From an uncultured Candidatus Saccharibacteria bacterium (GTDB taxonomy: Bacteria; Patescibacteriota; Minisyncoccia; Phycocordibacterales; 2-02-FULL-43-11): a stretch of DNA of 64,000 nucleotides. Location of the stretch: assembly GCA_964348785.1 (NCBI GenBank), contig CAYGDO010000002.1, positions 66,238-130,237 on the forward strand, given 5' to 3'. Of the stretch, positions 11,105 through 58,873 are shown one piece after another (position 1 is the stretch's first letter; every line of letters begins with the position of its first letter). The notes under the pieces were generated by a model. It was not told the DNA's origin. It ran no database searches and was given only the letters and a program-made list of their open reading frames with translations. The position numbers and the translations under genes are program-made.

Positions 11105-11857
11105 TTAAATGTATTTAGGAGTTCCTATATCCTTTGTTTCTATAGTGATGTCCGAAAAATGTTCCTCCTGAGCGACATGCACTACTCCCTGTTTAACAAG
11201 TTCAAGCATAGCCAAAAAACTAACTATAACGTGTACTTTTTCTTTTTTCCCAAAACCTGAAAATTCTTTAAAACTCATCTTCAAAGAATCTTGGACTCTT
11301 TTTGAGAGATTTTGAATGACTTCTTCTAAGCTAATAACTTTCTGAACTATTGCTTTAGACAATTTCTCAAATTTTGGCAAAGAAAAAATAACTTGTTTTA
11401 TAGATAAAAGTAGATTTGGTAAAGTGATATTTTGATGAGGCGCAAAAACTTTACTAATCATTCTATTTTCCTGAAAAAGCAAAACATTTCTACCAAAAGA
11501 TGGTCTTAGGGTTTTTGATAATTCTTTGAATCTCTGGTAAATCTTTAACCTTCTCTCCAAATCTTCCATACTTCCCTGCTCTTCTTCTGACAATGCCAAC
11601 TCCGGCAAAAGAGCTTTTGATTTTATAAGAAGCAAAGTGGACGCCACCAAAATAAAATTAGCACTTTGTTCAATTGGAAAATCCGTAAAACTATTTACAT
11701 AACTTATATAATCATCAGCCACCTTAGCCAAAGAAATTTCGGTAATAGAAAGTTTTCTTTTTTCTATCAAAGATAAAAGCAACTCAAGTGGCCCCTCAAA
11801 TGCTTCCTGTTTAACTGTAAAAGATGACTGCATAATAAAATTTTTATTTTTTGACAC
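11105..11857 (-). CDS. scpA: segregation and condensation protein A
   Basis: 'FEGPLELLLSLIEKRKLSITEISLAKVADDY' ScpA signature. Confidence 0.85.
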   Translation of the reverse strand: MSKNKNFIMQSSFTVKQEAFEGPLELLLSLIEKRKLSITEISLAKVADDYISYVNSFTDFPIEQSANFILVASTLLLIKSKALLPELALSEEEQGSMEDLERRLKIYQRFKELSKTLRPSFGRNVLLFQENRMISKVFAPHQNITLPNLLLSIKQVIFSLPKFEKLSKAIVQKVISLEEVIQNLSKRVQDSLKMSFKEFSGFGKKEKVHVIVSFLAMLELVKQGVVHVAQEEHFSDITIETKDIGTPKYI

Positions 11858-13262
11858 TAAGACCCAATTCTAATAACTGTTCTTTTGAGATTTCGCTTGG
11901 CGCACTCATCATCAAGTCCTTTCCTTCGCCAGTTTTTGGAAATGCAATAACTTCTCTAATGTTTGGCTCGTTCTGAAGCAACATTACTATTCTATCAATT
12001 CCAGGAGCAAAACCACCGTGTGGAGGAGCTCCATATTTAAAGGCTTCAATCATATGAGCAAACTTTCTCTGTTGATCTTCTTCTCCAACACCAAGCAAAT
12101 CAAAAACTTTTTTCTGAATTTCTGATTTATGAATTCTTATACTTCCTGAAGACAACTCATAACCATTTAAAACTAAGTCATATGAATTTGCTCTGATTTC
12201 AAAAAGATTTTTATCAGTAGGACCAGTTGCGGACATAAACTTTTCTTCATCCTCTTTTTTAATTGAACAAAATGGATGATGTGCCGCTTGAACTTTTCCG
12301 TCATCAGTTCTTTCAAACATTGGAAAATCTACAATCCAAGCGAAAGCTAATTCATCAGGATTGCTTTTGTCTTTTCGAAGATCCGGCTTATCAGATCCAT
12401 ATTTATCCATAGATTCTTTAAAAGTTAATCTTGGGAATGGAGTTTCTGAAATTTTCTTATTTGGATAAACAGTTTTAATAAGTTCAATAAACATTTTTTC
12501 TGTATAAACCAAAACATCTTCTTGTTCAACAAAAGACATTTCAAAATCCAACTGAGTGAATTCTGGCTGTCTGTCGCCTCTTGTATCTTCGTCTCTCATA
12601 CATCTAGCAATCTGAAAATACTTTTCAAAGCCAGCAACCATCGAAAGTTGTTTAAATTGTTGAGGTGATTGAGGTAAGGCGTAAAATCTTCCTTTCTCAA
12701 GTCTTGAAGGAACAACATACTCTCTTGAACCTTCCGGAGTTCCCTTCATAAGTATAGGAGTTTCAATTTCAATGAAATCATTCTTGTGCATGTAGTCTCT
12801 AAAAAAAGCAATAATCTTATCTCTCATTCTGATATTTTTTTGAAGTCTTGATCTTCTCAAATCCAAATAACGATACTTCAATCGAACATCTTCACTAATT
12901 TCTTTTCCGTCAGTTCTAAGATCAAAAGGTGGGGTCTCAGCTTTATTTAGTATTTCTATACCCAATATTTCAAGTTCAATAGAACCATTTTCTTCATCTT
13001 TGTTTATCATCTTTTCAGGTCTGCCGTTTACTTTGGCCTTTAGAGCAAGAACCCATTCTGATCTTATTTCACCGGCAACTTGATGTGCCTCTTTGTGGTT
13101 AGGAAGAACAACAGATTGAACCTTGCCCGTCATATCACGAAAATCAAAGAAAATTAATTTTCCATGATCACGTCTAATATCTACCCAACCCTTCACTAAA
13201 ATTTCTTTACCAATATTATTTTTTAAATCTCTGATATATGTCCTTTCCATATTTTTAGACAT
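11844..13262 (-). CDS. aspS: aspartate--tRNA ligase, short form lacking the full bacterial insertion domain
   Basis: Class IIb motif 2 'RCMRDEDTRGDRQPEFTQLDFEMSF' matches AspRS 'FRDEDLRADRQPEFTQID'. N-terminal OB fold. 472 aa. Confidence 0.85.
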   Translation of the reverse strand: MSKNMERTYIRDLKNNIGKEILVKGWVDIRRDHGKLIFFDFRDMTGKVQSVVLPNHKEAHQVAGEIRSEWVLALKAKVNGRPEKMINKDEENGSIELEILGIEILNKAETPPFDLRTDGKEISEDVRLKYRYLDLRRSRLQKNIRMRDKIIAFFRDYMHKNDFIEIETPILMKGTPEGSREYVVPSRLEKGRFYALPQSPQQFKQLSMVAGFEKYFQIARCMRDEDTRGDRQPEFTQLDFEMSFVEQEDVLVYTEKMFIELIKTVYPNKKISETPFPRLTFKESMDKYGSDKPDLRKDKSNPDELAFAWIVDFPMFERTDDGKVQAAHHPFCSIKKEDEEKFMSATGPTDKNLFEIRANSYDLVLNGYELSSGSIRIHKSEIQKKVFDLLGVGEEDQQRKFAHMIEAFKYGAPPHGGFAPGIDRIVMLLQNEPNIREVIAFPKTGEGKDLMMSAPSEISKEQLLELGLSVKK

Positions 13263-15829: not shown

Positions 15830-15997
15830 CCAACCATAAGGATAATAGACGGTTAACTCCACAATGTCCCCTTTTGTGTCTGTGGATAGAGTAATGGAAC
15901 CGAAGTGGTCGGTGAGGTGATATGAAAGAGCGGGAGATGGGGTTACTTCTACAGCTTTGGTTTGTTTTACTGCTCCGCCTTTTTTGATGAGTTAGTC
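15830..15997 (-). pseudogene. orphan remnant of an RHS core start (no start codon, begins right after a stop, ends 'YYPYGW*')
   Basis: About 165-nt duplicate, roughly 75% identical, of main-gene segment 17205-17362. Translates to 'IKKGGAVKQTKAVEVTPSPALSYHLTDHFGSITLSTDTKGDIVELTVYYPYGW'. Main-gene counterpart reads '...LIKKGGTIRQLKPIDLTSSSSLSYHLIDHLGSITLSTDTAGKVVELIDYYPYGS'. Confidence 0.6.
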
Positions 15998-16356
15998 CAA
16001 TAGTAAAGTTTAGTAGAATCAGTTGGATAATCACCTCCGCAATCTTTGTCTTTTTGGGGATCCACAATTTTATCAATTTCAACATCAAACATCCGCCAAC
16101 TGGGATTCTTAGCGTACGTATTGTCCCCCCTCTTTTCGTGACTAATAAAATGGCGCTCACTGGCACCGAAATTCTTAAAATTGTCCTGTGCCTGAAGTAA
16201 AGAAACTTCATTGGCTCCCAAAGTTTCAACAAACTTTAGTTGAGAAATGTCATCCTCCCAATTACAAATCGGGCAAATTTCGTAGTGTCCGGGAGGTTCT
16301 GAAAATACATCATACCCACAACACGGGCAAGTGAACATTGTTTCGTCTTTTTTCAT
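15967..16356 (-). CDS. CPCC-family cysteine-rich protein, putative cognate immunity protein of the upstream RHS toxin
   Basis: Literal 'CPCCGYDVFSEPPGHYEICPICNWEDD'. Starts 5 nt after the stop of the 2417-aa toxin gene. Confidence 0.6.
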   Translation of the reverse strand: MKKDETMFTCPCCGYDVFSEPPGHYEICPICNWEDDISQLKFVETLGANEVSLLQAQDNFKNFGASERHFISHEKRGDNTYAKNPSWRMFDVEIDKIVDPQKDKDCGGDYPTDSTKLYYWTNSSKKAEQ

Positions 16357-16361
16357 ACTAA

Positions 16362-19300
16362 TTACTTTAAACTTTTAAGTAAGCTCTTCAAACTGTTTGA
16401 GAGAGACTGCAAGTTGTTAATTAATTGTCCAGCTTGACGATCAAAATACGCCTGACCTGCTGACGGCTTAAAAAATGTATTGATGACAGTACCACCAGTT
16501 TTAGGATTAATTTGAAAAACCGCAAAAGAGTTCGACAAAGAATCGTAGGCCCTTGCCACACCTCCAGCATCTATTTTTAGTGAAGTTTTACCATTCATTG
16601 CGTCAGTTACAAAATCTCTAGCACCTTTTATATACTCCTTAGTATTTTTAAATCCAAATTTCTCTGCATGTTTCCCAGCATGATAAATTGCATTATCGGC
16701 CAACGTTAACTTGGTTCCTTTACTCCAGATACCCTCAAAGACTGGCACCACTTTCCCCGCGGGTATCTCCCCCGCAGTCAATGCCCCAACGGCCGCCATC
16801 CCATAATTTCCTTTATCTACATCATCTATTACTTGGCTGACAGCAACTTGCCCAAGTGGAGTGAGTAACGATTGGGCAAAGGAAGTTATCTGTGGAGCGT
16901 ACATTGTCAAAACCCCTGCAACAGCCACTAGAGCTGGAAGAAACCTCCCATCCGGGTCTTTGTAAGTTACGGGATTATTACCTCCATACGAATACGAATT
17001 CTGAACTTGAGGATTTAAAAGAGCTTCCTTCCCTTCTTTACTCATCCCCACTTCCCAAAACACCGGATCCTGATTAAGAAACTGCCCTCTTGCTCCATCG
17101 TAGTAACGAGCATTAAGGTAAGAAAGTCCTGTACTTGCATCAAACTCCTGCCCTATATACTTCCTCTGTTCTTTTGGAGAACCTCCTTCATCTGCCCTAA
17201 TACTACCATAAGGATAATAGTCGATTAATTCCACAACTTTACCAGCGGTATCTGTGGAGAGAGTAATAGAACCAAGGTGGTCGATTAAGTGGTAAGAGAG
17301 AGATGAAGATGACGTTAGGTCTATAGGCTTTAGCTGGCGGATTGTTCCTCCTTTTTTGATTAAGACGCCACCTCCTTTCTTAACTAGAAGCTTGGAGGCT
17401 TTGAGGTTGATGTAGAGAGTGGAGTCTGCTGTGACAGTAAGAACTTTACCTACAGGGACAATGACAGAAGCGGGAGCGGTAACGGAGCCCACAATAGTAC
17501 ACGAAGAAATCAGCGTGAAATCTCCTGTTTCTGGAATAACACAAGTACCAGCGTTTGCATTTGTTAACTTTGGAGCTACGGGTGTCTTTTTGTCAAAAGT
17601 GGAGAGTAACGTGTCGCCCACAAAAACGTGAGAAGTCTCGGACACAACAACGTCGTCAGAATTGTATCCTGCGTTGAAGTATTTAGATGGATACAAAGTA
17701 ACACCGCCTTTCCCATCAGAAACCTTCACCCTAGCGCCTCCGTGATCATAAGCGTAAGTGGAAGTGGCGAGACCGTTTGCAACAGAAATTAGGCGGTTGT
17801 TGTAGTCATATATATAGGAAATATTGCCAAACGAAATCAAATTACCACTTTTGTCGTAAGAGAGAGTGTTGGTTGCCACAGAACTACCGGTAACCGTCGA
17901 CGCGTGGGGGTTGGCGTAATCGGTACCATCATAAAAATAGTTAGTAGTTGTAAACTTCCCCACAGCACTACTAAATGGGGTATTTTCATTAAAAATAGGA
18001 GCTCCGAAAGCCGTGAGATGGTATGCATTCGCCGTAAAATCGTAATAATTATTGCCAAGTTTGTAGTAAGCAACAAGATTGGCCTCATTCCCACTCAACT
18101 CAGTAAGATAATTGCTATCCAAATCAACAAGCGAACGACTTGTATTCCAAAATCGGACATCGTCAACAAGACCGTCCCAATTATGCGGATTTGGGAAAGT
18201 GGCCTTACCGATAGCCAATTCATTAAACCCGCCATAACCTCTACCGACAGCAAGAGTGGGGCCTTTCACCAAAGTATGCCCGCTGCTAGTTGATGTTGCC
18301 AAATACAAGTTCATTTCTGTGCCATTGTAAGTTCCGACAATATGGTACCAAGAGCCGACAGAGAGGGTGGTGTCATAAATTATTCTTGCCCCCCCAACTC
18401 CTTCTATATGCCTGTCAAAATTAATGTGGTGAGATCCGTCAGTATAGCTTGTAGATAAAGAGTAACCGACATTGGTCACAGCATCCTGTTGAGACGCAAT
18501 AATATTGAACCCAGCGGAAGGCAAACTTTCAGGTTTTATCCAAGCCTCTATAGTAATAGGTCCCCCAGAAATACCAGCATTAGTTGGGACGGAAGCATAC
18601 TGACTAGAGTCTCCTTCAACATCTAAAGAATATGGGTTGAGTGAAACTTGCCCTTCAATTTTACTAATAATATTTCCAAGCGGATTGTAAGCAAAAGATT
18701 GTTGATTTGGCGTCGCCAATGCATCTACCAATCGATACAAATCATCATACTTATACGTCGCGATTTTCTTTGTGTTGGTTTCCGAATTATCCACAATCTG
18801 CAAAATATTTCCGACAGAATCGTAAGTGTAGGACAAATTTTGAAGTTGTAAGTTGTTAGCTGAAAGAGTCTTTTTATTTGTTAAGCGATAAAGTCGCGCT
18901 GGATCATAGGTATTTGTAGCAACAACACCATTACCATAAGTAATCGTTTTTAGCTGACCAAGTGGCGAATAATCAAAAGCGCCGATTTGCGTTACAGGTG
19001 TAGTTGTGGAAACTCCAGTTGCCGATATTGAATCAACTAAACCTGCGGAATTGTATATGTATGAAGTTTTTTTGGAATCAACGCCGGTCATTTCTGTCAC
19101 ACCTCCTCCTAAATTGTAGAGATAACTTGAAATGAAAGTTTTACCTCCAATAATTTTAGTTTCAGTTTTTGCTTGCCCCGCGGGGGTGTATGCGTAGCTA
19201 GTACTATTCATTTCTAAATTTGCCCCGACAGAATCATCGGCATAAGAAACCGCACAAAGCTTACCGATGCCGAAATCACAGGCGTCATAAGTGTAAGTTG

Positions 19301-22300
19301 TCCTAACACCTACAGGGATAGTTGAAATTGGAGAAGAAGCTGCCTCAATTTTCCCCAATCTATTCAACGAATCGTAAGTATAAACTGTTCGCGTACCATT
19401 CGGATCGGTTTTCCCCGTAAGATTGCCGACATCGTCATACTGATATGAGTAAACCCCGAAAGCGGTGTCACTTGGCGTGTGCAAATCTTCCGCCAAAAGT
19501 CGTCTACCGGAAAAGTCATAAGTGAAATTACGAATATTTTGAAGCGCATCTGTGATTTTTACAAGATTTCCTAAAGAATCATATTCATAAAATGTGGAGT
19601 AGGTGTCGGGATAATTAAATTCATCCACACGAGTAAGTCGGCCAAAAACATCTTTATAATATATTTTACTTTTACCGAGCGTGTCGGTAATTTTTGTCTG
19701 ACCGGGACTGAAATATGTATTGGTCGTCCCTAAAGCGTCAGTTTTCTGCACATTCCTACCGAGTGCATCATAAGTAAAGCTAGTATACAAAGAACTGTCA
19801 CTCGTGGCAGAAGTTTTACCTGAACCGTCACTAAAATATGGCAAAGATTGTTTTCCAACGCGACCCTCAGAATCATAAATTATGTCTGACACAATAAAAG
19901 TATTGGGATTTTCAGATTGTTTTCGAGTTTGTATCTCCCTACCAATGCCATCAAAATAAGTGTAGGTTTCGTTTGAAAGAGTACTGTTTATGAAATCAAC
20001 TTTTTTAACAGAAATATTATTTGGAGTATCTGTGTATTGATAAATTGTTTTTGTCACTAAAGAAGCCGAAATACCCGAAACCACGACGGAATTTCCGTCA
20101 GGCTGTTTTTCTTGAAGAGTACGGCCAAAAGCGTCGTATGCTTTGGAATAAATTTGATTATTTGAATCGGTGATTTGAATTGGCTTTCCTAGAGCGTAAT
20201 CGTAAAGATAAGTGGTTTTTTGATTCAAATGATTAGTGACTGAAATCGGAAAAAGATTGTATGTGTCGTAAGAATAACCGGTAGAATTTCCATTTGCATC
20301 GGTTGATGTTGCCACAAGCGCAAACGGATTGTATGTTGCAGAAGTAATGGAATACCTACCATCAGAAATCAAAGATTCTTGTTTTGTGCCATTGCCTTCT
20401 AAAAGTTGACCAAAAGGTAAATCATCAAAATATGTTTTTGATTCCGAAATCACATTTCCAGATTGCGAATTAGTAGTTTTATGAGATACCTCGTAATGAA
20501 TTTGTATTGAAGTTGAAGTGGAAACGCCCGCGTTTGAAGCGTACTCAACATTAGTTATAGTTTTGTCATTTCCAATATCAACAAAAGAATAAGAAGCGAG
20601 CGTGTTTGTTGACGCGGAAGTTACCTCGCCATAATCAACAGAAGAAATTAAATTGCCATTTGAGGTATCGTATGAATATTCCGTAGCGTGATCTTTGTGA
20701 GAAGTCGTGCCGTCAAAACTTTCTTCAATCTTTTTAGAAAGATACACAAATACCGGTGCGGAAGAAGTAAAGCCTGCTGAATTTACTCCCGCTAAAGGAG
20801 ACTCACTATAAATATTTTGATTTCTGGCGAACAACTTACCCTCCCTATCAAAAACTTCTGTTTTATATACAGAGCCGATTTTGCCGTAACTATCCCCTGT
20901 TTCTCCAGTTGAAGAGTTATCACCATTCCCCTGATGAAAATATGAAATTGTCACAGATTTTCCGGAATCTTTTGTAACCTTGCCAAATCCGGCAAATTTT
21001 CTATCGTGCGAACCGTTAAAAAATCCTTGCCCATCTGCGTAAGTGTATGTATCTACTTGTGGCTCTCCACCCACGCCATCGGTTGTAGTTATTTTGGACA
21101 CAATCCAAAGAACTGTTGGCAGTTTTAGATTAAACCGCTCACCCGAAGCGGAAGTTTTGTAATCAATAGATGTTTTTCCGCCTTGCGGGTAAGTTATAGT
21201 TTTTAAAATATCCGCTCTTGTTGTGGGGCCACTTGGAATATCAACGAGGGTGTCACCGTTGGTGTCATAGTAGTCGGTCAGTTGATAGGAAAAATTCCAC
21301 TTCCAATTGTAAGGATTTATTTTAATAAAATATGGAGACTTGAGGGTTGAACTTTTTACAAATCCATTTCCTGTATTTATGTAAACTTCATTATAATCCC
21401 CTGTTGTGTACCCGTTATCAAAATTTGGGTTGTTTGGCAAAACCCAACCACGCAAAACATCAACTAGCCCGTCAGCGTTAATATCCAGATACCGAACCCC
21501 CATATCATTACCGTCACCATCAGTCATCATTAATGTGTGGTCAGGTGAATCACCAAAAATAGGAACCATTGGTCCAGTTAACCCCCCATCTCCAGTACCT
21601 ATACGAAAAGAACTGTATCTATCGCTAGTCTTTGTATCATCTAAACCATCACCATTAACATCCATCGCACCCACTCGCCTCCTCTCCTCCCACCCAGATA
21701 TTTCGCGTCCATAAATTTCTGGTAGGCCATCTCCATTTGTGTCTGCAACGAAAGAGCCTTTGGCTACTAGCAAAGGAGTGGTAGTTGATATGTATGTATA
21801 ACTATTATCCAAACTATTAATACCGCTATTCAGATAAAGTGTCGGTGGATTGGGAGGAGGAGGACAGGTGGCGTTGGTACAACTACCTGCATTAAAGAGT
21901 GTAACCGGAACACCGAAAAAATCAGTTAAACCGTCACCATTCAAATCCGCAATACGCGCACCACTATCCTCTGGGCCTGAACCGTTTGAACCCCTAGTAT
22001 GATAAGCAAATCTTAAATTAGGTAGGGAATTTGAACCCGCTACGCCTAACTTGTTCCACTCCACCTGAATATTAAAACTATTTGATTCATAAGGGTTAAT
22101 TCCAAGCACAAATGAATCTGTGTAGCCATCACCATTCAAATCAGCATAAACATCTCCCCCTCTTTCTGGACCGTAAAAGAAAGAGCCGAGAGCCCAACTA
22201 AACGTACCGGATGAAATAGCAGGCTCAAGCCCCGTCGGTAAAACAGGATTTTCAAACCCCTTCGTGTACTCAAAAGTTGTTTGCGGTAAAGTTGTTGCAA

Positions 22301-23615
22301 CGTTTTGGGAGTCGTAGCCAGTTTCAGTAATTCCTGAAAGGATTGAACGTACGCCGTTTACACCAACTCCGTAGGCAAATTCGTATTTCTTTTTCAAAAT
22401 ATCACTGACACGAATTTCAATTATTTTGAGTCGTTTGGCATTGGTACTTAAAAATGCAAACTTGTATGAAGAAATAGCACTGTCTGAACGAGTATCTTCA
22501 TATACAAAAGTGACTTTGTAAATTCCAGATACAACTTCTCCGGAATTTGCCTGATGATTGGTATAAGTAATTTCAGTTGGATATACCTGACCGCCAGTTA
22601 CCGTATAGTTATATGAAATGTAATTACCGTTTGAATCACGGACTTCATCTAGATACCATTTAGCAACACGAGAAGCATTTGCAGGGTCCGCGTTTCGTGA
22701 AGTTGCCACCGAACCGAAAGTGTAGACTCTGCCGTTTTTATCATAAACCTTCCAACTCGTAGTGGTGGCGTTGTAAACATATTTCAAAAATTCGCCGGAA
22801 TCAACGCGAGGTTGATATAAACCAGCAATTGTAGTTGAGGCTAATTCACCGGATAAGCTGGAACTGAAATAATCTTGACCATACATTACTATATTTCCCT
22901 GCTTATTGATTCTCTCAATTGATGGAATGTTAAAATCCCAACCATACCCCATCGTATTTATGTTGGAATTCTCGGACGAGTTATATGAAATATTTAAAGA
23001 TGTCTCAACACCTGCCCTACCGGAAGGTGTAACAATCGGATAGGAATATGAAAGCGCTCCCGAGGAAGCATTGGCTTCGGGAAGAGTGGTTTTTCTATAA
23101 GCAAAATTGGAATTATCGTAAGTGGTTGGCTTGTTTTCCAACTGAGCGCTAGTGGCTTCAATTTCTGGAGGTAACAAGTCTTGCGCGTCCGGAGAAACCT
23201 CTGGAATTTCAGTGTCCAACTTTGGAGCTTCCGGAGCAATCTCGGGCACCACTTCAGTTTTTGGATTTGCATCTACAGTTGTTTCGGGAGTTATTTGTGT
23301 CGGGTCAGGTAAAATAGTAGAGCCTATTTCAGAATTTTCTGATGCAGAACTGCTTGGTGTTGATGTATCAGGAGAAACGTTGGTCTCAGCTGGGGTAGAT
23401 GGAGATGCAGTTTGGTCAGAGGAGGTTTCAACGGAAGCTACGGGGACAGGAGGTTGCGAAGCAACCTCCTGCGCAAACGCCACAGCAATCGGTTGCATTA
23501 AAAAAGCAACCACCAAAAAACTGGTTACGATTTTTTGCGTATTTGATTTTCTTATTTTCTTTGTAGAAACAATTGAAAAAAAGAAATTCATAGAATTTTT
23601 ACTGACACTTCCCAA
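16362..23615 (-). CDS. Tc-toxin-like TcB/TcC fusion / RHS polymorphic toxin: signal, S/T/P linker, SpvB domain, FG-GAP beta-propeller, YD repeats with LamG insertion, RHS core, C-terminal toxin domain
   Basis: SpvB-like N-terminal region. 'ADLNGDGLTD/DVNGDGLDD/LDINADGLVD' FG-GAP repeats. Many YD repeats ('YTYDALGR','YEYDSLGNL','YQYDDVGNL'). RHS core 'YHLIDHLGS...YYPYG...RYYDGARGQFLNQDPV...NPVTYKDPDGRF'. About 195-aa tip follows. Confidence 0.85.
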   Translation of the reverse strand: MGSVSKNSMNFFFSIVSTKKIRKSNTQKIVTSFLVVAFLMQPIAVAFAQEVASQPPVPVASVETSSDQTASPSTPAETNVSPDTSTPSSSASENSEIGSTILPDPTQITPETTVDANPKTEVVPEIAPEAPKLDTEIPEVSPDAQDLLPPEIEATSAQLENKPTTYDNSNFAYRKTTLPEANASSGALSYSYPIVTPSGRAGVETSLNISYNSSENSNINTMGYGWDFNIPSIERINKQGNIVMYGQDYFSSSLSGELASTTIAGLYQPRVDSGEFLKYVYNATTTSWKVYDKNGRVYTFGSVATSRNADPANASRVAKWYLDEVRDSNGNYISYNYTVTGGQVYPTEITYTNHQANSGEVVSGIYKVTFVYEDTRSDSAISSYKFAFLSTNAKRLKIIEIRVSDILKKKYEFAYGVGVNGVRSILSGITETGYDSQNVATTLPQTTFEYTKGFENPVLPTGLEPAISSGTFSWALGSFFYGPERGGDVYADLNGDGYTDSFVLGINPYESNSFNIQVEWNKLGVAGSNSLPNLRFAYHTRGSNGSGPEDSGARIADLNGDGLTDFFGVPVTLFNAGSCTNATCPPPPNPPTLYLNSGINSLDNSYTYISTTTPLLVAKGSFVADTNGDGLPEIYGREISGWEERRRVGAMDVNGDGLDDTKTSDRYSSFRIGTGDGGLTGPMVPIFGDSPDHTLMMTDGDGNDMGVRYLDINADGLVDVLRGWVLPNNPNFDNGYTTGDYNEVYINTGNGFVKSSTLKSPYFIKINPYNWKWNFSYQLTDYYDTNGDTLVDIPSGPTTRADILKTITYPQGGKTSIDYKTSASGERFNLKLPTVLWIVSKITTTDGVGGEPQVDTYTYADGQGFFNGSHDRKFAGFGKVTKDSGKSVTISYFHQGNGDNSSTGETGDSYGKIGSVYKTEVFDREGKLFARNQNIYSESPLAGVNSAGFTSSAPVFVYLSKKIEESFDGTTSHKDHATEYSYDTSNGNLISSVDYGEVTSASTNTLASYSFVDIGNDKTITNVEYASNAGVSTSTSIQIHYEVSHKTTNSQSGNVISESKTYFDDLPFGQLLEGNGTKQESLISDGRYSITSATYNPFALVATSTDANGNSTGYSYDTYNLFPISVTNHLNQKTTYLYDYALGKPIQITDSNNQIYSKAYDAFGRTLQEKQPDGNSVVVSGISASLVTKTIYQYTDTPNNISVKKVDFINSTLSNETYTYFDGIGREIQTRKQSENPNTFIVSDIIYDSEGRVGKQSLPYFSDGSGKTSATSDSSLYTSFTYDALGRNVQKTDALGTTNTYFSPGQTKITDTLGKSKIYYKDVFGRLTRVDEFNYPDTYSTFYEYDSLGNLVKITDALQNIRNFTYDFSGRRLLAEDLHTPSDTAFGVYSYQYDDVGNLTGKTDPNGTRTVYTYDSLNRLGKIEAASSPISTIPVGVRTTYTYDACDFGIGKLCAVSYADDSVGANLEMNSTSYAYTPAGQAKTETKIIGGKTFISSYLYNLGGGVTEMTGVDSKKTSYIYNSAGLVDSISATGVSTTTPVTQIGAFDYSPLGQLKTITYGNGVVATNTYDPARLYRLTNKKTLSANNLQLQNLSYTYDSVGNILQIVDNSETNTKKIATYKYDDLYRLVDALATPNQQSFAYNPLGNIISKIEGQVSLNPYSLDVEGDSSQYASVPTNAGISGGPITIEAWIKPESLPSAGFNIIASQQDAVTNVGYSLSTSYTDGSHHINFDRHIEGVGGARIIYDTTLSVGSWYHIVGTYNGTEMNLYLATSTSSGHTLVKGPTLAVGRGYGGFNELAIGKATFPNPHNWDGLVDDVRFWNTSRSLVDLDSNYLTELSGNEANLVAYYKLGNNYYDFTANAYHLTAFGAPIFNENTPFSSAVGKFTTTNYFYDGTDYANPHASTVTGSSVATNTLSYDKSGNLISFGNISYIYDYNNRLISVANGLATSTYAYDHGGARVKVSDGKGGVTLYPSKYFNAGYNSDDVVVSETSHVFVGDTLLSTFDKKTPVAPKLTNANAGTCVIPETGDFTLISSCTIVGSVTAPASVIVPVGKVLTVTADSTLYINLKASKLLVKKGGGVLIKKGGTIRQLKPIDLTSSSSLSYHLIDHLGSITLSTDTAGKVVELIDYYPYGSIRADEGGSPKEQRKYIGQEFDASTGLSYLNARYYDGARGQFLNQDPVFWEVGMSKEGKEALLNPQVQNSYSYGGNNPVTYKDPDGRFLPALVAVAGVLTMYAPQITSFAQSLLTPLGQVAVSQVIDDVDKGNYGMAAVGALTAGEIPAGKVVPVFEGIWSKGTKLTLADNAIYHAGKHAEKFGFKNTKEYIKGARDFVTDAMNGKTSLKIDAGGVARAYDSLSNSFAVFQINPKTGGTVINTFFKPSAGQAYFDRQAGQLINNLQSLSNSLKSLLKSLK

Positions 23616-24840
23616 TACAAATATCTCCGTCCGACACTAAATTCCCTGATAGTTTTATATCCCCAGCAACATCGAGTTTTGCCCCTGGAGTAGTAGTTCC
23701 GATTCCCACCCTACCCGTAGACTTTACTATAAGATATGAAGAAGAATTAATATACACGTCCCCTTTTGGTGGCGCGCCGACAGTCACATTATCAGCCGAA
23801 CTAAAACTAATAACATTTCTTTCGGTCCCAGAAGAATCTTTAAATTTTATAGATTGGCTATTATCAAGCAGTATGCTACCGCCACTTATGGTGAGTTTTT
23901 GAGTGGGCGATAAGGTACCTATACCTAATTTACCCCCAGTAAATACCATGTCTGGAGTAAGAGGATTAGAAACAACATTAGCAGTTAAACCAGTAGGGGT
24001 ATACCATCTAAAATCTGTAGCGGTATTTAATTGAACAGTAGCTGCCGTGCCAGAAGGAGTCACTCTATAACCAGCGCTATAAGATGGTTTACCTCCGGTA
24101 GACTGTAAAAACTCATTATTACCAGTCGTGTCGGTCATATATGTACCAAGATTTACATTATCTCCCCCTGTTGCACCTGAAGTTAATCTTAAATATCCTC
24201 CATTCAAAGTTAACCTCTCTGACGGTGAAATCGTCCCGACACCAACATTACCGGTTGAACCGACTATTACCATTCTTGACAGATGACCAGCCTTAAAATT
24301 AATGAGTGAGGTATAATCACCGAAATTAATTGGCAATGTGGTCTTACTGCCTGCCCCACCTGCAAAATAGAAACCAGTTGGATCCATACCAGCAATAATC
24401 TCTCTGTTTCTGTTTGAGAAAATATATCCACTAGTGGTATTACCGATACCAATACTACCGTAGGTTTCAAAAGGATAAAAAGGAGTTGTCGTACCCACCC
24501 CCATTCTTCCCGTCGTATCTATAGTAACTTTTGGATTGGAATTATTGGTGAAAAAATATAAATTGTGATTACTTTGAGTGCCTAGCCAACCACCAGGAAT
24601 TGAAGTATTCCAAACAAAAGTACCCATTTTCACCAAACCGTCTGTATGAACGAGACCATACTTACCGGTAGCTGTTTTTATAGTGAGAGGGCTTTCTGGA
24701 GAAGTCGTCCCGATACCAACATTACCAATGTTAGTATTGTAAATATTATTACCATTACTTTGCCAAAAAGCATCAGCAAAATTAATGTCCAAAAGAGTTA
24801 GAGTTGATAAAAAGACAACCAAAAATATTTTTTTATACAT
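23599..24840 (-). CDS. secreted repeat protein with tail-fiber-like 'G(N/S)VGIGTT(S/T)P' repeats, first gene of the RHS operon
   Basis: Signal peptide. Seven or more 'VGIGTTSP/ VGVGTISP / LGIGTLSP / VGIGTTTPGAKLDV' repeats. Ends 'DICIGKCQ'. Overlaps the RHS gene start by 17 nt. Confidence 0.6.
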   Translation of the reverse strand: MYKKIFLVVFLSTLTLLDINFADAFWQSNGNNIYNTNIGNVGIGTTSPESPLTIKTATGKYGLVHTDGLVKMGTFVWNTSIPGGWLGTQSNHNLYFFTNNSNPKVTIDTTGRMGVGTTTPFYPFETYGSIGIGNTTSGYIFSNRNREIIAGMDPTGFYFAGGAGSKTTLPINFGDYTSLINFKAGHLSRMVIVGSTGNVGVGTISPSERLTLNGGYLRLTSGATGGDNVNLGTYMTDTTGNNEFLQSTGGKPSYSAGYRVTPSGTAATVQLNTATDFRWYTPTGLTANVVSNPLTPDMVFTGGKLGIGTLSPTQKLTISGGSILLDNSQSIKFKDSSGTERNVISFSSADNVTVGAPPKGDVYINSSSYLIVKSTGRVGIGTTTPGAKLDVAGDIKLSGNLVSDGDICIGKCQ

Positions 24841-55465: not shown

Positions 55466-58400
55466 TTAATTTGTCACAACATCAGTAGAAGAGGCTGTCG
55501 GTTCTATAATCGCCGGCATAGTCGTAGTAGATATATCGATAACAGGTAAAGTTGTTGACGCTTGAGAGTTCGGATTAAAAACAACTACAGTCCTTGTGGA
55601 AGTGGCAAAATTCATCATTGAATCATGGGCAACCCAAACTACTTCATAGGTACCCTCTCTAGATGTGTCCACTGTGCTACTTGCCAAATCAGGCATCAAG
55701 CTTTGCCCTTTAGAATCTAAAGCTGTGGCCCCCAAATCAATATACGTAGAATTTAAAGCGATTTCTGATGGGTTATTACCAATAAGAGTAATGACGGGTG
55801 TAGAAGTTGATACTACATTTGTCTGATTATCAATTTTTATATTAGAAAATACAGTTTTAAATTGTTCTTTAGTAACACATATATCCTCCAAACAAAGTTC
55901 TTTAGTCTCAACTCGATCAAACACTCCTAAAACTGAAGTAATTTTTGAGCCCATCCACTCAGCAACATTTGAGACAAAACTAGAAACCGTAGAAGTTGAA
56001 ATTTTAGATTCTAAATTCAAAATTCTTGATTCAATATCATTTAGACGAATAGAAGAAAAAACCGGAACGGAAATTAAAGTTGAGGAGGCCGTTGAAGATG
56101 CAATGGAAAAAGTGCTTGTTGCCGTCTGCCTCATATTTAAAACTGAAGCCAAATCTTGAACCGCAGAAACTGTTAAAGCTGTTAAGTTGCCATAAGAAAT
56201 ACCTTTACTACCCTCTTCACCAGAAACCACTTCAGGAATTTCTTTCTCGATATCTTGAGCAATAAAACCTATTTGAGGTAAGTGGTTCCCTTTCATCTCA
56301 TAATAAACAGGTTTTAAATTTAAAATGGATTGAAAAGAATATTTATTATTTAAAGGAATAATATTTTCCTTGTACGAAATATCAGATGCGCTAGTCCAAG
56401 CTCCAGCAGCATTTAAAGTCGCAGTATTTAATGACCCCCCTGTATCTCCTCCCAAAAAGGACATTACCCCAGACGTATTCATATATATGCTACGAAAATC
56501 AGTATTACCCGTTTCAGCTATATAAAGACCGCCCGTTTGATCATTAGCCGATTGAGTAATTGATAATCTGGCAGTAGGCGATGTTGTGCCCAATCCAATA
56601 ACACCAGTATTTTTAACTATAAAATCAGTTCTAGTTGAGGAGCCAATAACAAAAGATGGTCCGCCTATGCTATTTGGATTTATAGAAAATTGACCCCATG
56701 GAGTAGTAGTACCAACACCTAAATTACCATCAGAAGATTGTGCATAAAAAGTCGGATATAAATTATTTATAAAAGTTGAAATATATGATGATGTGCCGTG
56801 GATCACATCCTTAAGGCCATCACCATTTACATCCCCGACTGCAATTGAATTACCAGCCCCAACCGTATTATAAAGTTTTCGTGTTCTGAAAGTTCCATTA
56901 CCATTATTAATCAAAACTGATATTTGAGCTGTATTATTATTAGGAATAACTATATCTGGCCTAGTATCATCATTTAAATCACCGATAGCTATAACGAAAG
57001 GATTAACAATAGAAATACTATAAGCAACAGGTGATGCCAAAGTTCCACTAGTACTTCCCATAAAAATTGATACAGTACTTGGACCATTTGCGTTTGTAGA
57101 AACAACGTCATCATAGCCATCACCATCGAAGTCATCTACTCCTACCCAATAAGGCTGACCACTATTTGGCGAATAATCCGTCCTTGTGGCAAGAGTCCCA
57201 TCACCATTATTTAAAAAAATAGAAATTTTTGAACTACTCCAACAAGCAGTTGCGACATCCAACCAACCATCACCGTTAAAATCACCAAAAGTTGCCCCTC
57301 TTGAAGCAGAAAGATTCGAATAAGATACATAAGATGCAAAAGTGCCATCGCCATTATTCAAAAGAACGGAAATACCGCTAGCTCCTTGTGCCACCGCAAC
57401 AATATCATTCCAACCATCCCGATTAATATCACCAATATCGACACCATTAGGCCCAGCGCCAGTTGAATAATCAACTTTATTAGCAAAAGTTCCATCACCA
57501 TTATTTATAAAAACAGAAATAGTATTCGCGGTATAATTCCCAACAATTACATCTTGCGAACCGTCATTGTTTACATCACCTATAATAGAATCAATAGGAT
57601 TTGTACCCGCAGTATAGGTTACAGGAGCAGATAACACACCGGAGCTATTTAAAAACACTGTCATATTACTATTTGTATAATCCACACCAACAGCGTCAAC
57701 CCGTCCGTCACCATTTAAATCAGCAGTTTTGTCTCCCAAGGCGGCGCCAGTTGCAGATAAATCTACTCTTGTAGCAAAACTACTATCCATTTTAGAAACA
57801 GTTAAACCGGATGGTCCATTAACCTTCAGAGAACCAGCAAAAGTAGACGTGGCATTATAAGTATTAGTAGTTAAATTACCAGAAACAAATGCGTCACCAA
57901 CCACAGTAAACTTAACAAAAGGTGAGGATGTACCAACGCCAACATTACCTCCATTAGTGACAACAAAATTTGTAGCGGTAGAAGAACCTATCACAAAAGA
58001 TGGTGTTGTTATGCCATTTGGATTTATAGAAAATTGACCCCAAGGTGTACTAGTCCCGACTCCGATTCTGTTATTAATAGAATCGACATATAAAGTCCCA
58101 GAATCAAAATTGACATCGCTTGAAATTGTAGAAGTACCCGAACTTAAAGAAACAGTGAGTACTCCAGAAATAGTTGTGGAACCGCCAGATAAAGCTCCAG
58201 AAAAATTTCCGGTAACACTATCTAATCCTCCAGTTAAAGTGATAGAAGAACCGGAAAAAGAAGAATCTGAAATTGTGGCTCCACTTATAGTAACACTCGA
58301 TAATTTATCTATTTTATTAGATAAAGATATAGCTTGATAAACAGGAGCTAAAGATAAAGAATTATATGCTTGCTGTTTTTGTTGTTGATTAGCAACTAAA

Positions 58401-58873
58401 TATTTTATTTCGCTAATTTGTCTCTCCAATTTAAGCTTCAAATCATTAACGGAATTATCTATATCATTTTGAGATACACCAGAAATTTCTATTGTTTTAA
58501 TAATTTTTATTTGAGGTTCTTTTTTTTCTTCGGGCACAATATCTTGTGATTGTCTTGGCGTTGTTGAACTAACAACCGTGTTTAAATTTGCACCAAAACT
58601 TAAAGAATTTACAGAAGCCGGCAAATGATTGACCTTATCAAGCAAAACTGAAAAAGATGCTGAGGTATGATTAAAAATTCTAACCACTGTTCTGTTAAAA
58701 TTTAAAGCAAAATAAAAAGGAGCTCTTAAAACTTCAGAAAATGAAAGGGCCGAAGCAAAAGAGGGTGAAAAAATAAAAGAAGTAAACACCAAAATAACCA
58801 AAAAAATGTTTAGATTATTTTTTATGCTTTTATTCCACATACTTAAGACAAAAAACTTTTTTATCTCGTTCAT
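55466..58873 (-). CDS. large secreted surface protein: tail-fiber-like GxGTxTP repeats, FG-GAP beta-propeller, peptidase-S74 intramolecular-chaperone domain, C-terminal Ig-like (DUF5011-like) domain
   Basis: Signal peptide. 'NRIGVGTSTPWGQFSINPN' repeated. Seven 'D(L/V/F)N(G/N/R/D)DG..D' FG-GAP motifs. 'SDISYKENIIPLNN...LKPVYYEMKGNHLPQIGFIAQDIEKEIPEVV' S74 chaperone motif. 'VITLIGNNPSEIALNSTYIDLGATALD' Ig-like. Confidence 0.7.
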   Translation of the reverse strand: MNEIKKFFVLSMWNKSIKNNLNIFLVILVFTSFIFSPSFASALSFSEVLRAPFYFALNFNRTVVRIFNHTSASFSVLLDKVNHLPASVNSLSFGANLNTVVSSTTPRQSQDIVPEEKKEPQIKIIKTIEISGVSQNDIDNSVNDLKLKLERQISEIKYLVANQQQKQQAYNSLSLAPVYQAISLSNKIDKLSSVTISGATISDSSFSGSSITLTGGLDSVTGNFSGALSGGSTTISGVLTVSLSSGTSTISSDVNFDSGTLYVDSINNRIGVGTSTPWGQFSINPNGITTPSFVIGSSTATNFVVTNGGNVGVGTSSPFVKFTVVGDAFVSGNLTTNTYNATSTFAGSLKVNGPSGLTVSKMDSSFATRVDLSATGAALGDKTADLNGDGRVDAVGVDYTNSNMTVFLNSSGVLSAPVTYTAGTNPIDSIIGDVNNDGSQDVIVGNYTANTISVFINNGDGTFANKVDYSTGAGPNGVDIGDINRDGWNDIVAVAQGASGISVLLNNGDGTFASYVSYSNLSASRGATFGDFNGDGWLDVATACWSSSKISIFLNNGDGTLATRTDYSPNSGQPYWVGVDDFDGDGYDDVVSTNANGPSTVSIFMGSTSGTLASPVAYSISIVNPFVIAIGDLNDDTRPDIVIPNNNTAQISVLINNGNGTFRTRKLYNTVGAGNSIAVGDVNGDGLKDVIHGTSSYISTFINNLYPTFYAQSSDGNLGVGTTTPWGQFSINPNSIGGPSFVIGSSTRTDFIVKNTGVIGLGTTSPTARLSITQSANDQTGGLYIAETGNTDFRSIYMNTSGVMSFLGGDTGGSLNTATLNAAGAWTSASDISYKENIIPLNNKYSFQSILNLKPVYYEMKGNHLPQIGFIAQDIEKEIPEVVSGEEGSKGISYGNLTALTVSAVQDLASVLNMRQTATSTFSIASSTASSTLISVPVFSSIRLNDIESRILNLESKISTSTVSSFVSNVAEWMGSKITSVLGVFDRVETKELCLEDICVTKEQFKTVFSNIKIDNQTNVVSTSTPVITLIGNNPSEIALNSTYIDLGATALDSKGQSLMPDLASSTVDTSREGTYEVVWVAHDSMMNFATSTRTVVVFNPNSQASTTLPVIDISTTTMPAIIEPTASSTDVVTN

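Follow-up and report, generated by a model that had tools for sequence, protein, structure and literature searches.

A circularly permuted LamG module inserted into the shell of a secreted TcB-TcC-like cocoon: a probable target-binding element of a Patescibacteria toxin

How is a secreted toxin cocoon brought to particular cells when no TcA-type partner is encoded nearby? This question is raised by a gene in a 64,000-nt stretch of DNA (hereafter the window) from an uncultured Candidatus Saccharibacteria bacterium of the Patescibacteriota (assembly GCA_964348785.1, contig CAYGDO010000002.1, positions 66,238-130,237), which encodes a single-chain RHS protein resembling the TcB and TcC components of the toxin complexes (Tc) and carrying a laminin G (LamG) module between two of its YD repeats. 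In Tc toxins, TcA is both the receptor binder and the former of the translocation pore. A sequence-only reading of the window had placed a LamG or concanavalin A (ConA)-like lectin domain of about 180 amino acids (aa) at 18080-18630 within the YD-repeat shell, and had suggested that it fills the role of TcA. Our analysis indicates that the LamG module of this TcA-less secreted cocoon is most likely an exterior target-binder giving the toxin its cell specificity, a reading to which we assign a rough probability of 0.6. The coordinates of the features are collected in Table 1.

The peptides quoted in that reading are encoded on the minus strand: LDVEGDSSQYASV, WYHIVGTYNGTEMNLYLA and WDGLVDDVRFWNTSRSL correspond to aa 1664-1676 (window 18588-18626), 1756-1773 (18297-18350) and 1813-1829 (18129-18179) respectively of the 2417-aa open reading frame (ORF). 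A plus-strand reading of 18080-18630 was rejected, as that strand is full of stops throughout. Pfam, which had been proposed as a check on the segment, matched Laminin_G_3 (PF13385) over profile positions 3-146 of 151 with an E-value of 1.2e-18 and 68.2 bits compared with a gathering cut-off of 27.6, and the LamG match is therefore far beyond chance; by itself such a call is routine, since Pfam detects the domain. YD repeats flank the module on both sides, FAYNPLGNIISK before it and 'YFYDG..YANPHA', LSYDKSGNLISF, 'YIYDYNNRL' and 'YAYDHGGARV' after it. In an alignment of 13 sequences (the query and its twelve best homologues), aa 1656-1888 formed an exact indel between YD repeats, the block being present in P0001 (the database entry identical to the query) and P0002 (57% identical overall) and absent from P0003 (52%) and ten others, in which 'YDxxGNI..K' is joined straight to 'Y.Y.G..YANPHA'. 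Stand-alone relatives span 91-94% of the same unit. The LamG domain is thus inserted within the YD shell and distinct from it, as had been claimed. The unit is nevertheless some 50 aa longer than the 180 aa first proposed and occupies window 17952-18650; the interval 18080-18630 ends at aa 1846 and leaves out the last β-strands of the domain.

We analysed the block further using AlphaFold2 (AF2). Modelled in isolation (aa 1650-1895, with a 30-sequence alignment of the closest relatives), it folded as a separate β-sandwich of 15 β-strands with a mean predicted local distance difference test score (pLDDT) of 85.8 and a predicted template modelling score (pTM) of 0.85. The best Foldseek matches in the PDB were the LamG domains of PAPP-A and PAPP-A2 (E about 2e-9, with 1.7e-9 for PAPP-A; query TM-score, TMq, 0.61-0.63, with 0.63 for PAPP-A), and further matches included the putative carbohydrate-binding protein BACOVA_03559 of Bacteroides ovatus (4dqa), pentraxins, the laminin G-like (LG) domains of perlecan, laminin and agrin, the receptor-binding domain of botulinum neurotoxin and the tailspike TSP2 of phage CBA120. 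The Foldseek probability was 1.00 for PAPP-A LamG, the pentraxins, the LG domains and 4dqa, and a search of viral models matched the block with many phage proteins labelled 'Concanavalin A-like lectin/glucanase'. That the domain might be an enzyme of the ConA-like glucanase superfamily, similar to glycoside hydrolase family 16 (GH16) and digesting the cell-wall polysaccharide of the target, is scarcely credible, the GH16 catalytic motif E[ILV]D[IVAF][VILMF]E being absent from the block and the best structural matches being non-catalytic LamG, pentraxin and carbohydrate-binding module (CBM) domains. The whole TcC-like half (aa 1190-2230, 1041 aa, 35-sequence alignment) gave a model with a pLDDT of 84.7 and a pTM of 0.74, in which the β-hairpins of the shell (pLDDT >90) ended at aa 1656 and restarted at aa 1889, with the LamG block retaining the strand pattern of the isolated model. 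This model resembled TcC chains (target TM-score, TMt, 0.69 for 5kis_B, 0.64 for 6l7i_G and 0.62 for 4igl_D) and TcdB2-TccC3 (TMq 0.53-0.57). Thus the Pfam hit above threshold, the confident β-sandwich and the Foldseek matches bear out the LamG/ConA-like assignment, and the flanking repeats, the exact indel and the shell model bear out the insertion; a LamG fold was predicted, and the segment was not modelled as part of the regular β-sheet shell.

The module differs from a canonical LamG_3 domain in the order of its strands. The canonical order, with strands of the type 'LVAYWKLDE..GN.L' first, was not found; such strands lie at the C-terminus of the module (aa 1845-1885), and we therefore conclude that it is circularly permuted. 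In the isolated model aa 1845-1888 had pLDDT values of 89-94, contained strands and were part of the sandwich, and when the block was aligned with doubled canonical LamG sequences from homologues the alignment crossed the junction in all five cases. The module is thus a circularly permuted subtype of Laminin_G_3, with the fold family kept and the topology varied. A plausible origin of the permutation is excision of a unit from a tandem array in another phase. The closest relatives of the module are stand-alone proteins of ~240 aa that start with 'MANTHSLDLE' and end with 'SPVFSTDVPF', which are the same permuted borders. Stand-alone and tandem LamG_3 proteins of the Candidate Phyla Radiation (CPR) and of phages share the permuted unit 'xTHSLDLE...SPVFSTDVPF' with up to 52% identity, but they are free proteins or arrays, whereas the unit described here is embedded in another fold.

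The protein that carries the insert was matched by Pfam with SpvB (PF03534, aa 183-355, E 8.5e-16), FG-GAP repeats at about aa 490-635 (PF13517, E 2.3e-6) within a β-propeller at about aa 480-735, TcdB_toxin_midN (PF12256, aa 796-883, E 1.7e-12) and six RHS_repeat stretches (E 1.1e-29) together with DUF6443, and by NCBIfam with the Rhs_assc_core family TIGR03696 (aa 2133-2223, E 1.4e-16). From this domain set the protein is a naturally fused TcB-TcC ('BC') cocoon: the scaffold has the SpvB, propeller and midN part, a TcC-like shell, and an RHS core followed by a variable cargo. Searches of PDB sequences aligned aa 1543-1634 with residues 1749-1847 of TcdB2-TccC3 (6H6G) and aa 2096-2230 with residues 2036-2157 of a related construct (6H6E); the ~270 additional residues of our protein compared with TcdB2-TccC3 are due to the LamG block and a second insertion of 84 aa. 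The autoproteolytic DPxG motif 'KDPDG/RF' lies at aa 2219-2225, and autoproteolysis at the RHS core is predicted by analogy with the family. The likely true start of the gene, as read from the start region, is the ATG at 23591.

On which face of the shell does the LamG module lie? We infer an exterior position from three considerations. First, the cargo (20.4 kDa), the LamG module (25.1 kDa) and the second insert (8.6 kDa) would together amount to about 54 kDa, in a shell shorter than that of TcdB2-TccC3, whereas the largest natural Tc cargo is roughly 35 kDa and a 49-kDa toxin 'would likely not fit' (PMC6868009). Secondly, in the cryo-EM structure of the mosquito protein SGS1, a CBM and a lectin carbohydrate-recognition domain (CRD) formed by segments inserted into the Rhs/YD repeats decorate the exterior (PMC9935623). 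Thirdly, the LamG module also serves in extracellular arrays and in phage structural modules.

The contents of the cocoon indicate the kind of toxin concerned. The cargo consists of a hydrophobic, Gly/Ala-rich part (aa 2226-2300) followed by a toxin domain (aa 2306-2394, window 16434-16700). Pfam and NCBIfam gave nothing credible for it, and it was identified solely by a PDB sequence search, in which its last ~90 residues matched chain A of 8EY4 end to end (E 2.4e-5), the C-terminal domain of a CdiA 'PT-VENN domain-containing protein'. A gene beginning 5 nt past the toxin stop codon encodes a CPCC protein (PF14206, E 1.5e-26) that matched chain I of the same structure (E 4.4e-11). As the two proteins match chains A and I of 8EY4, they are homologous to a solved toxin/immunity complex of the contact-dependent growth inhibition (CDI) type, and the system is therefore directly testable. 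The pairing implies that PF14206 CPCC proteins would act as immunity proteins; in the literature, we found no paper citing 8EY4 and none treating PF14206 as an immunity family. Other cargos in the family are Peptidase_M15_4/VanY, barnase-type Ribonuclease, Tox-REase-9, EndoU and Ntox44, with a Barstar gene directly downstream of the RNase-cargo homologue P0008 (locus L051). The toxin tip is divergent while the core is conserved (23% compared with 66% identity between P0001 and P0002), and our assignment of the protein to CPR bacteria is based on homologues with named sources, namely Candidatus Sungbacteria, Staskawiczbacteria, Ryanbacteria, Falkowbacteria, Peregrinibacteria and the 'Patescibacteria group'. 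Given the cargo and the immunity gene, the protein is predicted to be an antibacterial Rhs-type polymorphic toxin of CPR bacteria built on a BC scaffold, and the insecticidal Tc framing implied by the sequence-only reading was wrong.

In the mechanism that we propose, the permuted LamG module, inserted in a loop that joins two YD repeats of the TcC-like half of the Sec-secreted single-chain cocoon, would stand on the outer face and bind a glycan or protein on the surface of the target (or host) bacterium. The cocoon would enclose the 20-kDa basic CdiA-CT-type cargo, which the aspartyl protease of the RHS core would release from the chain and which the downstream CPCC protein would neutralize in the producer. 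Through binding by LamG the toxin would accumulate on certain neighbours or hosts, which would give it cell specificity without a nearby TcA-type receptor-binding translocator, and entry might occur via the hydrophobic N-terminal part of the cargo, the retained β-propeller gate or a fibre-like partner. Such target binding is plausible as a predicted function, and LamG/ConA-like proteins have been proposed as adhesion factors of CPR bacteria and their phages (PMC11310336, PMC12911398). No TcA-type domain was found among the scanned ORFs of the window (64 kb) or, with up to 10 kb of flank, in the five related loci L005, L007, L008, L050 and L051, as the earlier reading implied, and we therefore do not class the cocoon as a canonical ABC Tc toxin. 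The proposal that LamG fills the role of TcA went too far, in that the pore role is beyond a LamG domain; the binding share alone is conceivable, as a prediction.

Several observations weigh against an exterior target-binding role. In the context of the shell the LamG block reached only pLDDT 33-84 per 10-residue block, a lower confidence that arises because only P0002 covers those columns of the alignment. Ligand-site residues were not identifiable in the module, and its loops were barely more variable than its strands (entropy 2.04 compared with 1.80, a weak comparison). About 54 of the 67 BC family members have no LamG, and it is therefore not needed for the basic mechanism. Furthermore, a conserved upstream gene for a fibre-like protein could be the real targeting component, and the absence of TcA is local only, applying to 64 kb here and to up to 10 kb of flank elsewhere.

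The distribution of LamG in the BC family shows a mobile cassette. Pfam annotation combined with our own hidden Markov model (HMM) detected LamG in 13 of the 67 homologues; with the LamG block as a phmmer query P0002 was the sole match among them, and an iterated HMM was required to detect LamG at other shell positions. Across the family about six shell positions carry LamG domains, in one phase or the other. P0260 contains two cassettes (aa 805-1023 and 1714-1932), one at query position about 1000 and the other at exactly the insertion site of the query, and their 98.2% identity points to a very recent intragenic copy event; the two cassettes of P0270 (aa 939-1157 and 1694-1915) have 49% identity. 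Between P0001 and P0002 identity is 63-71% in the shell and 66% in the core, yet 43% in LamG and 23% in the toxin tip, and the LamG of the query is nearer to that of the stand-alone protein P0145 (52%) than to the same-site LamG of P0002 (43%). This pattern suggests rapid divergence or replacement of the cassette at the insertion site, as far as can be judged from sequence comparison. An exhaustive search gave 13,431 representative clusters at E ≤ 1e-3, in which giant LamG proteins hold up to 26 tandem copies, and a scan of genome contigs with LamG and its flanks returned only distant LamG relatives (23-32% identity) from other phyla. One stand-alone relative, P0122, sits in a phage structural module beside an SU10-type adaptor. 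The closest stand-alone relatives in loci L001-L004 (e.g. L001:6001-6711) likewise lie in phage-like structural clusters adjoining a gene with an SU10_adaptor domain, and these proteins may decorate the capsid or neck or form fibres.

These results bear on where LamG would bind. It has to be considered whether an exterior LamG binds the producer itself, holding the cocoon at the envelope or glycan coat of the CPR cell for contact-dependent display. Attachment to other cells is the way of life of CPR bacteria (PMC11310336), contact-dependent CdiA systems use toxins of the same type as the cargo, and the Sec signal peptide is followed by a long P/S/T/E-rich linker, yet the cocoon protein contains no recognizable anchor in the form of an LPXTG motif, an S-layer homology (SLH) domain or a second transmembrane segment. 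The faster divergence of LamG than of the shell and its apparent swapping between lineages fit an arms race over varied targets better than a stable structure of the producer, and most homologues have no LamG but would still need retention or release. We regard self-binding as unlikely, and binding to other cells as the preferred reading.

LamG is not the only insert in these shells. About half of the BC homologues have some insertion of at least 60 aa, and the hot spots lie, in query coordinates, at about 1000, 1339, 1541, 1588, 1633, 1656, 1896-1915 and 1946-1969, with 1588 the commonest. Other large inserts share shell loops (P0007, P0008, P0032, P0035, P0047 and P0065, at about 1588, 1633 and 1909-1915); among them are Gly-rich blocks (P0007), an Ig-like segment (P0008) and an insert of up to 1308 aa at 1588 (P0065). 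Unrelated insertions at the same hot spots, the near-identical duplicate in P0260, and the promiscuity of a cassette found in so many clusters, tandem arrays, stand-alone genes and insertion sites are what would be expected if LamG were a selfish or neutral passenger in exposed loops with no specific role in delivery. We hold this to be very improbable, as the fold-determining residues are kept across the 43%-identical LamG domains of P0001 and P0002 at the same site, the model is confident and related folds are typically binding modules.

The rival candidate for targeting is the secreted fibre-like protein encoded immediately upstream, with the stop codon of its gene 7 nt ahead of the toxin ATG, which matched PHROG tail-fibre families (E 1.6e-12 and 1.8e-11). 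This protein may act together with the cocoon, perhaps by docking on the β-propeller. In that case the fibre-like protein could be the chief targeter, binding to the propeller as TcA does, and LamG an accessory that enhances avidity. A homologue lies directly upstream of P0002 (33% identity, E 1e-18) and another upstream of the LamG-less P0006, where a C-terminal motif of 47 residues is 62% identical, and the TcB-type β-propeller is retained. The gene was, however, absent upstream of P0015, P0018 and P0008 and is therefore subclade-specific, the protein is a predicted partner only, and its involvement would be compatible with binding by LamG as well. Taken together, we consider the fibre as chief targeter rather unlikely, and LamG as the target-binder remains our preferred interpretation. 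Fibre-like genes stand next to cocoon genes in three loci (window 23599-24840 on the minus strand, L005:8844-9995 and L050:2452-4224), and their C-terminal motif '..GIGTTxPxAKxDxxGDxKxSGNLxSDGDICIGxCQ' is strongly conserved.

Next, we compared the system with known ones. In function its nearest analogue is SGS1; in sequence and structure the shell comes nearest to TcB-TcC, and the cargo and immunity protein to CdiA-CT/CdiI. Like the protein described here, SGS1 is a single-chain TcB/TcC-like Rhs/YD cocoon with segments inserted in its YD repeats and no TcA partner, and it has C-terminal hydrophobic helices inside the shell; its structure (8fjp) matched our TcC-half model with E 2.7e-20 and TMq 0.38 and was not among the top 50 Foldseek matches of the LamG model. 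The β-sandwich CBM and the lectin-CRD of SGS1 are on the exterior, whereas for our insert this position is deduced. SGS1 is also eukaryotic (horizontally acquired), its inserts are not Laminin_G_3, it has no toxin/immunity pair, and its insertion sites may not be equivalent to that of the query.

The BC components of Photorhabdus and Yersinia Tc toxins (TcdB2-TccC3 and YenB-YenC; 4O9X and 4IGL) share with our protein SpvB, the FG-GAP β-propeller, TcdB_toxin_midN, the RHS shell, a core carrying the autoproteolytic DPxG motif and, enclosed in the shell, a basic cargo of about 20-35 kDa. In contrast, our protein has TcB and TcC naturally fused, a Sec signal peptide, no TcA nearby and LamG and β-solenoid insertions in the shell, and its cargo is of the antibacterial CdiA-CT type with an immunity gene, whereas Tc cargos are anti-eukaryotic enzymes. 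A census of Tc toxins from 2021, in which 96% were from Proteobacteria and 3% from Firmicutes, did not include CPR bacteria (PMC7861908).

As in the Rhs/YD polymorphic and CdiA toxins, the conserved core is followed in this family by a variable C-terminal toxin, and there are an adjoining immunity gene and orphan tip/immunity cassettes. The family has no link to a type VI or type VII secretion system (T6SS or T7SS) or to CdiB, delivery being by a Sec-secreted BC cocoon, and the receptor-binding domain of CdiA is in a filament, whereas the candidate binder here is a shell-inserted LamG. Teneurins have a YD shell with an NHL propeller and bind the lectin domain of latrophilin. They too carry appended or inserted interaction domains outside the shell (PMC9935623) and were found among the Foldseek matches, but with a TM-score of about 0.2, and they have no SpvB/TcB part and no LamG insertion and are eukaryotic adhesion receptors. 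Exterior lectin-like inserts on a YD shell are thus already known from SGS1. Literature searches for LamG with Rhs, Tc or CPR returned no account of a bacterial Rhs/Tc shell with a LamG insert. Published toxin schematics do show Laminin_G_3 together with RHS repeats (PMC9111745).

With its fibre-like protein, its LamG-bearing cocoon around a CDI-type toxin and its immunity gene, the locus is a complete candidate module, and it bears on how episymbiotic CPR/Patescibacteria with tiny genomes attack or control neighbouring cells. Tc and RHS cocoons are under development as protein-delivery devices, and their targeting is normally ascribed to TcA, T6SS or CdiA filaments. Natural plug-in binding domains would reveal which shell loops tolerate insertions of 25 kDa and would suggest a way of retargeting cocoons without TcA; in this family the cassette occurs at several loops, with near-identical intragenic copies, and diverges faster than the shell. 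A wider proposal, which we offer only tentatively and regard as doubtful, is that the Sec-secreted single-chain BC cocoons of CPR bacteria are autonomous, TcA-independent antibacterial or host-directed toxins. Their specificity would come from exchangeable LamG cassettes in surface loops of the shell, shuffled among phage structural proteins, array adhesins and toxins and copied between loops of one gene, and entry would be by the hydrophobic leader of the cargo and not by a TcA pore.

Table 1. Features of the three-gene toxin module, in window coordinates (aa numbering follows the 2417-aa ORF; a slash marks a cleavage site)
Feature	Position	Strand	Basis
Full inserted LamG module, aa 1656-1888, 233 aa, 25.1 kDa, pI 4.8	17952..18650	(-)	Indel, AF2, Foldseek, stand-alone relatives
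Pfam Laminin_G_3 core, aa 1670-1828	18132..18608	(-)	PF13385
C-terminal extension of the module, aa 1845-1888, ANLVAYYKLGNNYYDFTANAYHLTAFGAPIF	17952..18083	(-)	Opening strands of canonical LamG_3; AF2, doubled-target alignments
Cocoon gene, fused TcB-TcC-like RHS protein, 2417 aa	16362..23615	(-)	ORF list, translation, Pfam, NCBIfam, PDB sequence matches
Sec-type signal peptide, aa 9-48, ..AVAFA/QE	23472..23591	(-)	Hydrophobic core aa 35-44; predicted cleavage site
P/S/T/E-rich low-complexity linker, aa 49-165	23121..23471	(-)	P19 S16 T16 E14 among 117 residues
TcB-like N-terminal part: SpvB, FG-GAP β-propeller, TcdB_toxin_midN	20967..23069	(-)	Pfam
YD/RHS shell N-terminal to the insertion, aa 884-1655	18651..20966	(-)	Pfam RHS_repeat and DUF6443; AF2 β-hairpins
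YD shell restarting after the insertion, aa 1889-2016	17568..17951	(-)	Homologue alignment; AF2 pLDDT >90 from aa 1889
Second shell insertion, aa 2017-2100, 84 aa, 8.6 kDa, β-solenoid-like, Cys pair	17316..17567	(-)	Alignment and AF2
RHS-associated core with 'ARYYD', 'NQDP' and 'NNPVTYKDPDG/RF' motifs (autoproteolysis site)	16944..17315	(-)	TIGR03696
Encapsulated C-terminal cargo, aa 2225-2417, 193 aa, 20.4 kDa, pI 9.5	16365..16943	(-)	PDB 8EY4 chain A, hydropathy
Immunity gene, Cys_rich_CPCC, 129 aa	15967..16356	(-)	PF14206, 8EY4 chain I
Secreted tail-fibre-like protein, 413 aa, 'GxVGIGTTxP' repeats	23599..24840	(-)	PHROG tail-fibre families

The second shell insertion, which lies directly ahead of the RHS core, contains CVIPETGDFTLISSC and KKGGGVLIKKGG. 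It was modelled by AF2 as nine regularly spaced strands of 3-4 residues with pLDDT 86-94, and neither Pfam nor NCBIfam gave a credible match for it. In the homologue alignment it was common to P0001, P0002, P0003 and P0006 only.

The hydrophobic start of the cargo may be a self-translocation leader. We calculated hydropathy with a 19-aa Kyte-Doolittle window over the first 70 aa past the DPxG motif in the tips of P0001-P0068, and the maximum was ≥ 1.4 in roughly half of them. A hydrophobic, transmembrane-like start was seen in the query (1.65), the RNase-cargo P0008 (2.01) and the EndoU-cargo P0052 (1.82), with no such stretch in the peptidoglycan-hydrolase tip of P0036 (0.52) or the Ntox44 tips of P0009 (0.43) and P0016 (0.19). 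The association of a hydrophobic leader with nuclease cargo is suggestive and not clean (P0021, 0.76; P0023, 0.97).

Two related loci contain additional toxin fragments. Four orphan C-terminal fragments of YD shells, each followed by a small ORF, lie in the P0002 locus (L005:19701-27011), and in the P0008 locus a YD-tip with a CHAP domain is found upstream of the cocoon gene and Barstar after it (L051:3002-4898 and 11560-12021).

The three-gene module (fibre-like, cocoon and immunity genes; 15967-24840) has a G+C content of 39-41% compared with 34-35% in its flanks, and the strong negative GC skew of the neighbouring genes is missing inside the cocoon gene. This contrast could reflect horizontal acquisition or amino acid composition. 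Outside the module, the window ORFs with Pfam matches are mostly housekeeping genes. At 55466-58873 on the minus strand, a protein of 1135 aa with six FG-GAP_3 repeats, a Peptidase_S74 (endosialidase chaperone) domain and a bacterial surface Ig-like domain is probably another surface or fibre protein.

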